Assembly (NCBI GenBank): GCA_041661185.1
Contig: JBAZUV010000004.1
Span: forward strand, 85,002-149,001
DNA length: 64,000 nt
Reading direction: 5' to 3'
Source of the DNA: Elusimicrobiota bacterium
GTDB lineage: Bacteria > Elusimicrobiota > Elusimicrobia > UBA1565
Of this stretch, positions 37,344 through 42,072 are shown one piece after another. The translations under genes were made by a program, and so were the position numbers. Below the pieces are notes generated by a model. It ran no database searches and had not been told where the DNA came from. It saw only the letters and a list, made by a program, of their open reading frames with translations. How positions within the stretch are numbered: position 1 is the first letter of the stretch; each line of letters opens with the position of its first letter.

Positions 37344-37525
37344 AGCGGACCTCGCTGCAACCTGAATCATCTTGATTTATCTGCGTAAATCCTCCATACT
37401 TAGGGTATAGAGGGATGAGGTTCCTCTCCTCCCTATTTCCAATAATTTTTAAGAACTATGACGTGTATATGGAAGATATTTATTTATAGAATCAACAAGC
37501 ATTGCAGCCGGTCTTGAACAACGAA

Positions 37526-40141
37526 ATGAACGCTTCCGCACGCATCAGCCATCGCCCACCGCTCCCTGAGAACACCTTGGGAAGCCGCATGGGCGCGACC
37601 CTCATAGAACTCATGATCACGGTGGCGATCCTCTCCATCATCGCCCTGAGCATGCTCGGAGCGTTCACGAACATCCAAAAAGGGATCCAGATGTCGAAGA
37701 ACAAGACCCTGGCATCCAATCTCGCCCAAGAAAAGATGCAGATCCTCAAGCAGCAGACCTACTACCGCGTGCTGCCGACCAGCACTCCCTCATACACCAG
37801 CGACGGCACCCCTTACGACACCGTATTCTTTCCGCCCGAAGACATCCTCCAAGGCGGCGTGATTTTCCACCGCCGCACTTATGTGGCGGTTGTGACGGAA
37901 GATTCAGGTCTATTGGCGATCCAGTCACCCACAACCCCCGACACCGGCATGCGAAAAATCCTGATTACGGTCTCATGGGCCGATGGATCGCAGAATAAAA
38001 ACCTCGCCATAACGAGCGTTCTCTCCAACCCGAACACCGTCGAAACGAATTCCCACTTCATGGGAACGGTCAGGGACACCTCCGCCAACCCGATCCCGAA
38101 TGCCGTCGTCAATGTCGCGGAAAACTTCGGTTGGCGGGACACGGCGGACGCCTCCGGCGCTTACGCGCTCAATGTCATGACCGGGAATTTCAACCTTATG
38201 GCCTCAGCTGAAGGATATTTTACCCAGTACCTCTACCGCTCAGTGGCGCCCAACAACACGACGACCGTGGATTTCTCGCTCACGAAAATGAGTTCCGGCG
38301 TAGTCATGGGGACCGCGTGGATCACCCCGAATCTCGTCATCAGCGAAGTCGCAGTATCCACCGCGCAAGGCGATGCGAACGCCTTCATCGTCCAATACAT
38401 CGAACTCTACAATCCCACGACCTACACCATCACCCTCGGAGGTTCCCCTCCGCCCATCCGCCTCAACATCGACAATGCCTGCGGCGGCGGCTCCGAATGC
38501 ACTGAAACGCAATATCCTAATTACGGCGTAAAGCTCGATTACATCAACAACTCCGTAGCCTCCGGCACGTACTATCTCATCGCCAACACCAACACCTTCA
38601 TGCTCAACGGCCAATGGGTCGCGGCTGACGCGGTATTCGCGGACGACGCCGACAGCCACTGCACCCCGGCTCCGGCGAACTGGAACCTTTCCAGCAGCCC
38701 GCCGCGCAAACAGCTCCTTGCCATCAACCATGGAACCGGCGTGTGGCTGACCAACTCTTCCGGACAGCGGCTCGATACCGTGGCTTGGAGACATAATACC
38801 GTCCCCACAAGCTATGAAGGGACTTATATCGATTTCTCCGCGGATGGATTCGTGGACGGCGCGCAGATCGTGCGCATCTCCAGTCCCACATCGGCTCCGA
38901 CGATCACCGAGCTCCAAACCCTCGGCCGCGCCTACGATTCAGACAACAACTCCGTGGATTTCTCGACTTGCGCATCCATTGATATCCAGCCGCACAGCAC
39001 CGCCGACAGCAGCTTTCCCCGAATCTGCGGAGTACCCGCCGCAGGAGCCGTTATAACGGCCACGGATGGCCTCTCCGACTCCACAGCCGCGATATGCGTC
39101 GAGACGCCCCCTGTAGCACGATTCTCCCTGAACAATGTGGCGACAGGAACCTGGGTCGTGCTGATCACGAGCGGATCTTATGAACTCGAGAACGATACCG
39201 TGACCATCTCGGCATCAGGCTCGATCTACACATTCCCGAGCTCAACGACGATCCTAAGTTCGGCGCCGACGGCAGGATTCATCTCAGGGACCGTCCTCAA
39301 TGCTTTTGGGACTCCGATCTCGGTCCCGTCGGCGATAGCACTCAGCGCAACCGGCAGCGGCAGCGGAACAGGCACTGCGAACACGAGCAACGGCCGCTAC
39401 ATCCTGCGCCTCTCTTCCGCCGGCTTTTATACCGTCACCGCGAACCCTAACAACGCAAACGACAACTACATATTCCAATCTTCTGTTTCCGTGCCTTTGG
39501 AATTGGGCAGGATCACCAATGACGTGAACTTCATACTCACGCAAGGAGGACGCATCTCAGGATTCGTGACCCGCGACGGCACGAATCCCCTCCCAGGCGT
39601 CACGGTCGTGGCCATCGACAGCATCGGCTACGCGAAAGATCAGCAGATCACGGCCACCAACGGCCGATTCACGACCGTCACCATCGCAACCGGAGCATAT
39701 TCCGTGCAACCGGCCCTCGACACTCTCGAGACGTCCTCCCCGACAGCGATCTCGACGACCGTCCTGCTCGGCCAGGACGTCTTTGTGGGCACCTTTACGA
39801 TTTCAGGAGCGCTGGGAAATATCACGGGAAGCGTGAAAGTCGGAGGCAGGCCCATATCCACCGGAGTCCTTATCGTGGTGACCACGGCGACGCTCTCAGG
39901 AACCCCTCCTGTGCCGCCGACCCTGAGCACGGCCACGTCCTCGCTCAACTACATCTCATCGAGCAGGGAAGACGGAACATACACCGTCGGCGTGCGCCAA
40001 AGCACCAATCCGGCCTACAACGTCTACGGCTACTATACGACCGTATCCGATGCCGGAGCCGTATCGACTCAGTGGACCCTGCTGCCCAATGTGCCCGTCA
40101 CAGCAGGAGAAACAGTACCCAACAAGAACTTCTCATGGTGA
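37526..40141 (+). CDS. Giant type IV pilin-like protein (about 870 aa) with prepilin N-terminus, CarbopepD_reg-like domains and a lamin-tail domain
   Basis: Class III signal and methylation site ...RMG|ATLIELMITVAILSIIAL; LVISEVAVSTAQGDANAFIVQYIELYNPT matches the LTD signature; Thr/Ser-rich Ig-like tracts. Local GC is clearly lower than surrounding genes. Confidence 0.75.
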   Translation: MNASARISHRPPLPENTLGSRMGATLIELMITVAILSIIALSMLGAFTNIQKGIQMSKNKTLASNLAQEKMQILKQQTYYRVLPTSTPSYTSDGTPYDTVFFPPEDILQGGVIFHRRTYVAVVTEDSGLLAIQSPTTPDTGMRKILITVSWADGSQNKNLAITSVLSNPNTVETNSHFMGTVRDTSANPIPNAVVNVAENFGWRDTADASGAYALNVMTGNFNLMASAEGYFTQYLYRSVAPNNTTTVDFSLTKMSSGVVMGTAWITPNLVISEVAVSTAQGDANAFIVQYIELYNPTTYTITLGGSPPPIRLNIDNACGGGSECTETQYPNYGVKLDYINNSVASGTYYLIANTNTFMLNGQWVAADAVFADDADSHCTPAPANWNLSSSPPRKQLLAINHGTGVWLTNSSGQRLDTVAWRHNTVPTSYEGTYIDFSADGFVDGAQIVRISSPTSAPTITELQTLGRAYDSDNNSVDFSTCASIDIQPHSTADSSFPRICGVPAAGAVITATDGLSDSTAAICVETPPVARFSLNNVATGTWVVLITSGSYELENDTVTISASGSIYTFPSSTTILSSAPTAGFISGTVLNAFGTPISVPSAIALSATGSGSGTGTANTSNGRYILRLSSAGFYTVTANPNNANDNYIFQSSVSVPLELGRITNDVNFILTQGGRISGFVTRDGTNPLPGVTVVAIDSIGYAKDQQITATNGRFTTVTIATGAYSVQPALDTLETSSPTAISTTVLLGQDVFVGTFTISGALGNITGSVKVGGRPISTGVLIVVTTATLSGTPPVPPTLSTATSSLNYISSSREDGTYTVGVRQSTNPAYNVYGYYTTVSDAGAVSTQWTLLPNVPVTAGETVPNKNFSW

Positions 40142-40635: not shown

Positions 40636-42035
40636 TGAACCTCCACCCCAGACGCGGCCAGATCCTCATCGGCGTGATCCTCGTGATGCTGGTGCTGTCG
40701 ATCATCGTGCCCGCGATCGTGCTGTGGGTCCAGCAGGAATCAAAGATATCCGTCAAGGACCGGCAATCCACGACCGCCTTCCACTTGGCCGAGGCCGCCG
40801 TGGAAAGAGGCTTCTGGAAAGTCAAGAGCGCGACGAGCACCTGCGCCATGGCCATGTCAGGCGATGTAATCACGGGCTACGACTTCGACACGACTTACTC
40901 GGACATCACGGGAGGGACTTATCGGATCAGGATCTCCAGCACAGGGACCAACTCCGTCATGATAGTGGGCGAAGGCCGCGACAGTTCCACCAAGGAGACC
41001 CGCGCGATCTCAGCGGTGTTCAGAAATCAAACCATCTCCAGCCCTCTTTTGACCAGCGGCAACCTGAACTGGAAAAAAGGCTTCCGAACTTTTTGGGGTC
41101 CGATCATGTCGCAAGGCGACATCACCATGGAACAAGTGGTGGCGGAAGTCTACTACCCCAGGAAATATTCAAAAGGAGTGGTGACGGGCACGACTACCAA
41201 CCCAAGAGACACCACTGGGATTTCTCCGCCGAACACGGACGGAGAGGAATGGTGGTCGAATTATCAATACGTACCGGAACTCCCTATATTGGATTTCGCC
41301 GCTCTGCGTTCCTCCGCCGCAGCCACAGGAACCCTGAATGTCTACGGATGCAAAAAGAACGGCGCAGCCTGGGATACCCGCTCCTCATGCTCCGGCTACG
41401 GCGCGGTGGCCAATCACGCGGACCATTTCGGCAATCCTTGGAACCATCCCAAATCTCCGCAATATGACAGCACCGACTATGTCTGGTATTATGATGGGAA
41501 CCTCGTATTGAGGGGAGAATACTGCGGATCCAACAACCCGTGCGGTCAAAGTACCGGTCTGAAGGGCACGCTTATCGTTCGCGGAAATCTCACCATCGAC
41601 TCTCCTGGAGAATACGACTACTCAGGCCCTGTCCCGGCCGATGCCTGGGAAGACCATGGCAAGATCACAAAAACGACTTGGGACACAACCGCTACTCGCG
41701 AATACCCCGCGGATATCGGCTTTCATCAGACCACCGGTACATTCGCTTTCGGCACCGATACTTGGTGTCAGGGCGGAAGCTGCGGTTGGAGAACGACCGT
41801 CGGCATGCGGGGCTTCACTTATGTCGGAGGCATACTCACGGTCCCAAACTCGAACGGCTTCATGGATTTCAACGGCGCGGTATGGGTCGTAGGAGACGTG
41901 GACGCCCAAGGAGCTTCCGCGAATGCTTTCTGCGGGATATTCTTCAACGATAATCTGCAGCTGCCGACCCTGAATGTAATCCTTGTGCGCCAGTCCTGGA
42001 AAGAGATAGGCGCCTCCTCACAAGCTTGGCCGTAA
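40635..42035 (+). CDS. PilX-like type IV pilus minor pilin (PilX_N-type N-terminus), 466 aa
   Basis: MNLHPRRGQILIGVILVMLVLSIIVPAIVLWV resembles the PilX N-terminal domain; Cys-, Gly- and Thr-rich body; TGATG overlap with the upstream gene. Confidence 0.7.
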   Translation: MNLHPRRGQILIGVILVMLVLSIIVPAIVLWVQQESKISVKDRQSTTAFHLAEAAVERGFWKVKSATSTCAMAMSGDVITGYDFDTTYSDITGGTYRIRISSTGTNSVMIVGEGRDSSTKETRAISAVFRNQTISSPLLTSGNLNWKKGFRTFWGPIMSQGDITMEQVVAEVYYPRKYSKGVVTGTTTNPRDTTGISPPNTDGEEWWSNYQYVPELPILDFAALRSSAAATGTLNVYGCKKNGAAWDTRSSCSGYGAVANHADHFGNPWNHPKSPQYDSTDYVWYYDGNLVLRGEYCGSNNPCGQSTGLKGTLIVRGNLTIDSPGEYDYSGPVPADAWEDHGKITKTTWDTTATREYPADIGFHQTTGTFAFGTDTWCQGGSCGWRTTVGMRGFTYVGGILTVPNSNGFMDFNGAVWVVGDVDAQGASANAFCGIFFNDNLQLPTLNVILVRQSWKEIGASSQAWP

Positions 42036-42072
42036 GAAGATAGCAAGCAGCGCGTTTGCTATCATCTCCCTT

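Follow-up and report, generated by a model that had tools for sequence, protein, structure and literature searches.

A phylum-wide three-gene pilin unit with a giant modular prepilin as a candidate tip set of type IV filaments in Elusimicrobiota

Introduction

The Elusimicrobiota are a widespread, mostly uncultivated phylum of groundwater, sediments and animal guts and, to our knowledge, nothing is known experimentally about their pili. A stretch of 64,000 nucleotides (nt) from one Elusimicrobiota bacterium (lineage UBA1565; GenBank assembly GCA_041661185.1, contig JBAZUV010000004.1, positions 85,002 to 149,001 of the forward strand), here called the window and numbered from its first letter, carries three co-directional genes for pilin-like proteins, lying between the genes that we call nrdJ and tmk. 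They code for a giant prepilin, a small pseudopilin and a PilX_N/GspK/ComGG-type subunit, and we refer to them together as the triad. A first-pass annotation, made from the letters of the window, had read the triad as a low-GC type IV pilin cluster of horizontal origin and the giant as a pilin with a lamin-tail domain (LTD), perhaps a DNA-capturing subunit relevant to competence. What do the three proteins do together, and did their genes come from elsewhere? We find that the triad is inherited as a unit and conserved across the Elusimicrobiota, and we consider it probable that it is a translationally coupled operon whose minor pilins prime a type IV filament and form its tip.

Results

The triad is a conserved unit of the Elusimicrobiota

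In NCBI the giant protein is represented, at 100% identity, by cluster P0001 ('carboxypeptidase regulatory-like domain-containing protein [Elusimicrobiota bacterium]'). Over 120 full-length relatives were found, which are 39-55% identical to the giant, and every one that has a taxonomic name belongs to the Elusimicrobiota. A scan with one genome per species returned 79 loci, almost all labelled Elusimicrobiota or Endomicrobia. The complete triad was found in 77 of 81 related Elusimicrobiota loci. In three of the four exceptions the contig stops at, or just past, the giant gene, and in the fourth (L045) no match was detected in the roughly 400 bases downstream. The order nrdJ-triad-tmk-holB-metG recurs even where the identity of the giant is down to 33-40%. 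Moreover, over 2,145 locus pairs the three genes vary together (r 0.85), whereas the correlation of the giant with its flanks is only 0.25. We conclude that the triad is inherited as a unit, that it is a conserved feature of the phylum with an ancestral place at the nrdJ-tmk slot, and that it is not a recently imported island. This distribution also answers the suggestion that the presence of the cluster might vary between strains.

Two observations on individual loci are of interest here. The triad of L081 and L063 lies between tmk and nrdJ in an orientation that is inverted relative to both flanks, which means that some lineages have undergone a flip of the cassette or of the slot. Also, a typical Elusimicrobiota triad is found in L018 (CAIWTG010000031.1), a metagenome-assembled genome (MAG) labelled 'uncultured Chloroflexi bacterium', probably through a binning error.

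As described in the first-pass annotation, the stops and starts within the triad overlap (for the coordinates of all features, see Table 1). The TGA stop codon of the giant gene (40139-40141) overlaps the ATG of the pseudopilin gene at 40135 (ATGGTGA), and the TGA of the latter (40633-40635) shares its last base with the ATG of the third gene at 40635 (TGATG). As read from the sequence, junctions of this kind are typical of translational coupling. The tmk gene begins 37 nt downstream of the triad, and no terminator was called in between in a promoter and terminator scan. The AT-rich upstream region noted before is indeed present, as the spacer that follows nrdJ, and the promoter of the operon is presumably located there. 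The scan, however, called no sigma-70-like site in the spacer and, except for the nrdJ terminator, found nothing that scored better than shuffled sequences. At the DNA level, no similarity was detected between the spacer and the upstream sequences of related loci, and Rfam gave no match in or near the cluster.

The three proteins resemble minor pilins of the I, J and K positions

A six-frame motif scan of the entire window picked up just two class III signal peptides, which belong to the triad; no prepilin peptidase gene was found among the window open reading frames (ORFs) examined. In the giant, the predicted cleavage (...SRMG/ATLIELM, the slash marking the site) would give a mature protein starting A-T-L-I-E, with a glutamate at position 5 (Glu5) that is conserved in the family. 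The prepilin of about 870 residues with a class III signal of the first-pass annotation is therefore borne out. An in-frame TTG at 37577 would yield a short MGSRMG leader, which leaves the start codon of the giant unsettled and the mature protein unaffected. The giant scores below the cut-offs of the prepilin models (N_methyl, 15.2 versus 21.2; TIGR02532, 13.5 versus 16.3), and its N-terminus shows sub-threshold matches to ComGE (34.1 versus 49), gspI (26.7 versus 44.35) and PilV.

The second protein begins MVKKQRPAG/FTLTEM, a prepilin signal with Glu5, and passes both models (N_methyl, 27.9 bits versus 21.2; TIGR02532, 32.7 versus 16.3), in agreement with its earlier designation as a small pseudopilin. 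Its sub-threshold matches are to gspJ (27.0 versus 64.85), ComGF (22 versus 80) and Verru_Chthon protein C. It is the best-conserved member of the triad (55% mean column identity) and the only basic one, with a net charge of +12 and an isoelectric point (pI) of 10.5; basicity is a family trait (median charge +8, pI above 8 in 90% of the relatives). To judge from sequence, this basicity keeps a DNA-related reading alive for the pseudopilin; it is equally explained by complementarity to two acidic partners.

The third protein has a hydrophobic N-terminus, RRGQILIGVILVML, in which a Gly replaces Glu at the position equivalent to 5, and the absence of Glu5 is conserved among its relatives. The earlier assignment as a PilX_N-type minor pilin holds for the character of this N-terminus, but the score against PilX_N (PF14341) is 20.0 bits (E 6.9e-4), under the cut-off of 25.5. 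Eight of 36 relatives match the same model, with a best E of 1.1e-7. The best NCBIfam similarity is to ComGG (12.2, cut-off 40).

None of the three proteins reaches the cut-off for membership in the curated I, J or K families. The best NCBIfam matches, all sub-threshold, nevertheless fall on the I-J-K order of giant, pseudopilin and third protein. The arrangement is also that of a tip complex, with three adjacent genes and a last product devoid of Glu5.

The giant is a pilin module followed by a row of beta-sandwiches

An AlphaFold model of the full giant, based on an alignment of 60 relatives, has a mean predicted local distance difference test score (pLDDT) of 86.9. In the model, the N-terminal module consists of a long, 50-residue alpha-1 helix and an antiparallel beta-sheet, which is the pilin fold, and beyond this module, up to the C-terminus, only beta-sandwiches are predicted. 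The CarboxypepD_reg domains proposed earlier are confirmed, since Pfam PF13620 matches the giant in three stretches for a total of 77.8 bits (E 8e-22; cut-off 32.3). Within the C-terminal stalk, modules 2 and 3 (residues 583-672 and 673-762) score 27.6 and 28.7 bits with this model, module 1 is weak, and module 4 has no Pfam match. The approximately 700 residues after the pilin module comprise four to five units of the CarboxypepD_reg kind and a single LTD/DUF4876-like module with two lobes. By fold (Foldseek), the stalk falls with the multi-immunoglobulin (Ig) stalks of surface adhesins and sortase pilins (TIE, PitA, SdrD, RrgA/B and SpaC), and a profile search of PDB sequences with the giant returned CarboxypepD_reg-type domains only. 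The net charge of the whole protein is -19. We also considered whether the giant could be a major pilin; this was ruled out by its size and by the constant presence downstream of the pseudopilin and the PilX_N-type partner.

The lamin-tail module has the fold and is acidic throughout the family

The giant scores 26.7 bits as a whole against the Pfam LTD model (PF00932), and its isolated residues 262-502 score 31.8 bits (E 2.1e-7). The lamin-tail domain of the first-pass annotation is therefore under the gathering score of 34.3, but the match is significant and we accepted it, because the E value of 2e-7 is backed by evidence from the family and from the fold. The model matches 26 of 28 modules excised from relatives at E<=0.01 (best E 6e-9), and the precomputed Pfam lists of many homologues contain PF00932. 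Modelled separately, the module (241 residues; pLDDT 91.3, predicted template modelling score 0.91) folds as an Ig-like beta-sandwich that is superimposable on the lamin tail. Its best structural relatives are a putative transporter-lid lipoprotein, BT_1938 (PDB 4q1z), which is the nearest, and lamin. As modelled, the module has a true LTD core, to which a further lobe has been added. A profile search of PDB sequences with the module gave no match, and Pfam returned no match to DUF4876.

Does this module capture DNA? Its net charge (residues 259-500) is -13 and its pI 4.3; in 60 relatives the charge ranges from -23 to -2, with a median of -11, and the pI does not exceed 5.9. Judged by composition alone, the module fails to show the electropositive patch of the DNA-binding pilins ComP, FimT, ComZ/PilA2 and ComGD/ComGF. 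The sole functional test of a bacterial LTD that we found in the literature is the study of ExeM, in which the LTD was dispensable for extracellular DNA degradation in vivo and the role of LTDs is said to have 'not yet been elucidated' (PMC6085458). Since the module is acidic throughout the family, the ExeM domain is dispensable and the nearest structure is not a DNA binder, DNA capture by the LTD is unsupported. The corresponding proposal of the first-pass annotation is not upheld and ought not to be passed on until DNA binding has been assayed.

When 1.84 billion proteins were searched with a profile of the module, 150 representatives were retrieved at E<=1e-30. Most of them have 800-940 residues, with the module at about residues 250-500, and about one fifth are shorter. 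Three of the 150 are very large non-pilin proteins with multiple copies of the LTD plus extension: P0217 (5134 residues), P0247 (3404 residues), which also has a PLD-like domain, and P0262 (1363 residues), which has, in addition, cadherin-like domains as well as a type IX secretion sorting domain.

Three cassette types alternate at one slot

The giants form three deep types (A, B and C), about 35% identical between types, and each of the three adjoins nrdJ or tmk in some genome. The cassette of the window is of type A. We built neighbour-joining trees, with 100 bootstraps and few flanking genes. In the tree of the flanks (tmk+holB+metG) the window is sister to L055, whereas in the triad tree it groups with L004, L009 and L081, leaving L055 outside, a conflict that has 100% bootstrap. 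The gene order of L055 is that of the window, and its nrdJ, holB and metG products are 79%, 61% and 68% identical to those of the window, against 37-45% for the triad. Nor are triads closer to that of the window where the flanking genes are closer (Spearman -0.17, n = 22). The discordant trees, together with the three types at one slot, suggest that the content of the ancestral slot has been switched. Most likely, the type-A cassette of the window took the place of a different type from within the phylum, or was sorted from one.

Two complete triads occur side by side in L014, L025, L048, L073 and L075, possibly a trace of the sorting of paralogues. The second triads are of a different type (L014, 12722-17105; L073, 9134-13526; L075, 9671-13499; L025, 1290-6027; L048, 3234-7783), and the neighbouring triads lie convergent, divergent or in tandem. 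L050 and L013 have one triad at the slot and another elsewhere.

The low GC content is partly a property of the family

The GC content is 0.572 in the cluster, 0.634 over the remainder of the window and 0.63-0.69 in the genes next to it. The dip is real, but the 50-55% versus 68% of the first-pass annotation overstated it. Codon statistics were taken over the 64-kb window. The GC content at third codon positions (GC3) is 0.69-0.77 in the triad and 0.76-0.92 in its neighbours, which places the triad in the low tail of the window genes without making it an outlier, as comM has 0.65. The weighted means, calculated from the per-gene values, are 0.72 for the triad and 0.87 for the four flanking genes. 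Relative to those four genes the triad differs by about -0.12 at first (GC1; 0.50 in the triad), +0.05 at second (GC2) and -0.14 at third positions. Accordingly, roughly two thirds of the deficit fall on synonymous sites; the rest is due to the composition of the proteins, in which Thr (12.7%), Ser (10.6%), Asn (6.8%) and Ile are abundant. The share of GC3 rules out a pure amino-acid effect in the window.

Over 69 loci, the GC content of the triad follows that of its flanks (r 0.98). The difference between them has a slope of -0.27 and changes sign at about 53% GC, the triad being below its flanks in GC-rich genomes and above them in GC-poor genomes. This regression toward about 53% is the signature of a composition-constrained protein family. 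The GC3 deficit relative to the flanks is sporadic. It is seen in the window, in L009, in L010 and in the type-B cassette of L050, and is absent from most other loci. We considered that it could be intrinsic to cassette type A, and this was ruled out by a MAG that combines a host-like type A with a deficient type B. Sporadic deficits fit occasional transfer between lineages that differ in GC content better than an intrinsic property of a type, and the low GC3 of the window, together with the conflict between the triad and flank trees, suggests replacement of the cassette or sorting of old paralogues.

Other features of the window

The two genes that the first-pass annotation had placed alongside the pilins, comM and pilT, are both real, but they are about 36 kb and about 19 kb away from the triad and show no linkage to it. 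Directly downstream of the PilT/PilU-family gene, an ORF on the minus strand (16081-17337) codes for a 418-residue protein with no Pfam or NCBIfam match. It contains, at 16506-17085, a 45-bp unit repeated 12.9 times with 94% identity, coding for about thirteen Pro/Ala-rich repeats of 15 residues (PKPAPQPAPAAPAPV). An array of GC-rich palindromic units of 27-29 bp (approximately CGTCATTCCGGCGAAAGCCGGAATG), similar to repetitive extragenic palindromic (REP) elements, is found between rplU and nrdJ (34044-34234), and at 5363-5434 a tandem-repeat search (TRF) found a short repeat of 30 bp whose core is similar. A low-GC leader of about 360 nt (34280-34640), with no Rfam match, precedes the ribonucleotide reductase gene and may be regulatory. 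The comM/yifB gene and the first 3 kb of the window (GC 0.57-0.60) form another stretch of atypical composition.

Table 1. Positions in the window of the triad, the modules of the giant prepilin and the genes and elements discussed in the text.
Feature	Position	Strand	Remarks
Giant modular prepilin gene	37526-40141	+	871 aa from first ATG
Class III signal leader (giant)	37526-37594	+	ends at Gly23; read from sequence
Pilin module, aa 24-175 (giant)	37595-38050	+	predicted alpha-1 helix (aa 26-75) on beta-sheet (aa 105-167)
First CarboxypepD_reg beta-sandwich, aa 176-261 (giant)	38051-38308	+	51.4 bits; cut-off 32.3
LTD core and extension lobe, aa 262-502 (giant)	38309-39031	+	motifs LVISEV, YIELYNPT, ADAV and D-x-V-x-W conserved
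C-terminal stalk, aa 503-871 (giant)	39032-40138	+	four predicted beta-sandwich modules (AlphaFold, Pfam, Foldseek)
Prepilin-type pseudopilin gene	40135-40635	+	166 aa; G/FTLTE
PilX_N/GspK/ComGG-type subunit gene	40635-42035	+	466 aa
nrdJ	34642-37272	+	ribonucleotide reductase (name as used in this analysis); left marker of conserved slot
Intrinsic terminator of nrdJ	37304-37342	+	perfect 17-nt inverted repeat, 5-nt loop, then T run
AT-rich spacer between nrdJ and giant gene	37273-37525		253 nt; GC 0.466
tmk-holB-metG	42073-45280	+	right markers of slot; names read from the translations
PilT/PilU-family type 4a pilus ATPase gene	17364-18434	-	406.8 bits; cut-off 319.1
comM (YifB family)	289-1836		real homologue

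Discussion

We think it probable that the triad codes for a set of minor pilins that primes a type IV filament and comes to lie at its tip. The data above show the structure of the genes, the folds, the conservation and the pattern of the trees; complex formation, the location at the tip and the ligand we infer as follows. By analogy with the characterised GspI-J-K, PilV-W-X and ComGE-F-G tips, and in line with the discussion in PMC8179133, a prepilin peptidase would cleave the prepilins and the three alpha-1 helices would bundle in the inner membrane. The bundled triad would seed the assembly of the filament by a machine encoded elsewhere, and would end up at the distal tip, capping the filament. 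The PilT/PilU-family ATPase suggests that this filament is a type IVa pilus that can retract. Pointing outward, the giant's acidic stalk would serve as an adhesin or ligand-capture arm, with the small basic pseudopilin as a conserved structural core that pairs with its acidic partners. The CarboxypepD_reg units, the LTD/DUF4876-like module and the uniform acidity lead us to propose that the giant is probably an adhesin rather than a DNA catcher, the most likely target of its stalk being a carbohydrate, particle or cell-surface ligand. CarboxypepD_reg (PF13620) has been termed a 'carbohydrate-binding-like fold' (PMC8179133).

Several points weigh against this model, or limit the history that we propose for the cassette. 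The I, J and K matches are below the cut-offs and stem for the most part from the N-terminal helix. Neither here nor in 72 of the 81 loci does the triad adjoin genes for assembly machinery, for a major pilin or for a fourth minor pilin of the GspH/FimU type. The remaining 400 or so residues of the third protein have no Pfam domain, and their PDB profile matches are at chance level. As to the history of the cassette, replacement and differential loss of paralogues fit the present data about equally well, and the closest cassette, only 54-55% identical, is too distant to point to a donor.

Could the triad instead form the tip of a competence pilus, with DNA caught by the LTD or by the basic pseudopilin and delivered to the uptake machinery through retraction by PilT? 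The genome has both a PilT-family ATPase and a ComM/YifB homologue, but at the distances given above from the triad. Moreover, the ComM and PilT families are present in many bacteria for which transformability is not known. In Endomicrobium, competence genes are both conserved and expressed (PMC8809381), and the pseudopilin, basic here and family-wide, resembles ComGF below threshold; in Com pili an electropositive ComGD-ComGF interface captures DNA (PMC12153270). The charge of the pseudopilin is, however, accounted for just as well by pairing with acidic partners. LTDs are found in some extracellular nucleases such as ExeM (PMC6085458), and a protein with an LTD and a PLD-like domain shares the module of the giant; yet the module is acidic in every relative examined, the giant as a whole is acidic, the best structural relatives are a putative transporter lid and lamin, and the ExeM study calls the role of LTDs not yet elucidated and found the LTD of ExeM to be dispensable for DNA degradation in vivo. 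Overall, we regard a competence tip as unlikely. A more elaborate version, in which the basic pseudopilin binds DNA, perhaps together with the LTD/DUF4876-like 'lid' and divalent cations, the stalk holds the binding site at a distance, and the cassette types serve to evade pilus-targeting phages or to shift the range of ligands, seems to us quite unlikely. If the triad did form a DNA-capturing competence tip, it would assign the first function to a bacterial LTD on a filament.

Another reading is the tip of a type II secretion pseudopilus, in which the triad would be a GspI-J-K piston and the stalk would engage the secretin or the substrates. A three-gene I-J-K set without a fourth gene is the minimal tip of such a system, and there are the sub-threshold gspI and gspJ matches; the GspK-I-J tip is cited in PMC8179133. 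Nonetheless, a rod of some 700 residues with six or seven beta-sandwiches is hard to house in a periplasmic pseudopilus, no gsp genes are adjacent, the stalk resembles those of external adhesins, and the genome carries a retraction ATPase of the PilT/PilU family, which is typical of type IVa pili. We judge this explanation to be distinctly improbable. It also seems conceivable, if very unlikely, that no filament is involved and that the prepilin-like N-terminus only anchors the giant, its stalk being an envelope or S-layer-like component. A phylum-wide family next to housekeeping genes, with no linkage to pilus machinery, is what a core envelope component might look like, but the constant, co-evolving pseudopilin and PilX_N-type partners and the conserved Glu5 point to assembly into a filament. 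Least of all do we favor a recent foreign island, acquired from outside the lineage, as the explanation for the low GC content and the AT-rich upstream region, and we give it hardly any credence. The GC and GC3 deficits and the discordance of the triad tree speak for it. Against it, homologous triads fill the same slot in distant Elusimicrobiota, and the named relatives are all within the phylum. An island would be recognized by patchy presence and by hallmarks of mobility; the triad is present in almost all loci, with no tRNA gene at its borders (the nearest is at 47733), no flanking direct repeats and no ORFs other than the three pilin genes. The regression of the family toward about 53% GC reflects a compositional constraint, and other genes of the window have equal or lower GC3. 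The synteny in distant members largely refutes the horizontal acquisition proposed in the first-pass annotation, and the close tracking of host GC does not support it. What survives of the idea of a foreign origin, and is alone plausible, is that within the phylum one allele type took the place of another, which the tree conflict allows.

With a priming tip set as the preferred interpretation, the triad is a clear candidate for the first contact point of Elusimicrobiota pili, although the present evidence reveals no new kind of machine. The soluble 241-residue LTD module (pLDDT 91) and the basic pseudopilin are leads for work on adhesion and uptake. The giant would be a natural example of a lamin-tail fold on a filament, as predicted from its model, and a slot at which three ancient cassette types alternate offers a system for the study of surface-organelle diversification.

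The closest parallels are the GspI-J-K, PilV-W-X and ComGE-F-G sets, which, like the triad, are three adjacent co-directional genes in the same order, with Glu5 in the first two products and none in the third. In contrast to these known tip complexes, which carry large extra mass on GspK, PilX or the accessory PilY1, the triad carries its extra mass, about 700 residues, at the I-position; it also has no linked H/FimU-type fourth pilin or machinery genes, and its family matches are below the cut-offs. The giant further resembles the modular pilins, such as Streptococcus sanguinis PilB (vWA) and PilC (lectin), CofB of enterotoxigenic Escherichia coli (ETEC) and Thermus ComZ, in that modules are grafted on a small N-terminal pilin module and a location at the tip is expected. 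It differs in having six to seven modules in a row, rather than one or two, in that its modules have no demonstrated ligand, and in that its host belongs to a diderm phylum without experimental work on pili. Modular pilins have been defined as a class, comprising over 1,200 proteins in 264 architectures (Raynaud et al., 2021, PMC8179133), and the catalogue includes pilin-PF13620 (66 proteins) and pilin-IPR001322 (6 proteins; Dataset S1), IPR001322 being the lamin tail entry. The architecture class is therefore already listed, and the giant is an uncharacterised member of the modular minor pilins. A full-text literature search found no relevant paper joining the lamin tail domain and a pilin.

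With regard to the LTD module itself, its signature strands are those of PF00932, which takes in the Ig-like tail of nuclear lamins and the LTDs of secreted bacterial proteins such as the nuclease ExeM, but the module of the giant scores below the gathering threshold, has large insertions and an added lobe, and is not fused to a nuclease or phosphoesterase. BT_1938 (DUF4876, PDB 4q1z), 16% identical to the module, is a lipoprotein and not a pilin. It is a proposed lid of a TonB-dependent transporter, in line with the proposal that DUF4876 forms the surface lid of non-SusC TonB-dependent transporters (bioRxiv 10.1101/2023.03.17.533168).

For the slot, a precedent is found in Pseudomonas aeruginosa, where alternative pilA and fimU-pilVWXY1E sets occupy a fixed chromosomal site. 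As in those allele islands, deeply diverged cassettes are found at one site, between nrdJ and tmk, and the cassettes and their flanks have conflicting phylogenies. Unlike in P. aeruginosa, the divergence is on the scale of a phylum (about 35% identity) and some genomes keep two types, and the presence of two types side by side makes the sorting of paralogues as likely as exchange. Beyond the catalogue of modular pilins, then, the locus adds a constant three-gene unit, conserved across a phylum, with the modules on the I-position and not the K-position subunit, the structural kinship of an LTD with DUF4876, the combination of a basic pseudopilin with an acidic giant, and three cassette types at one slot.

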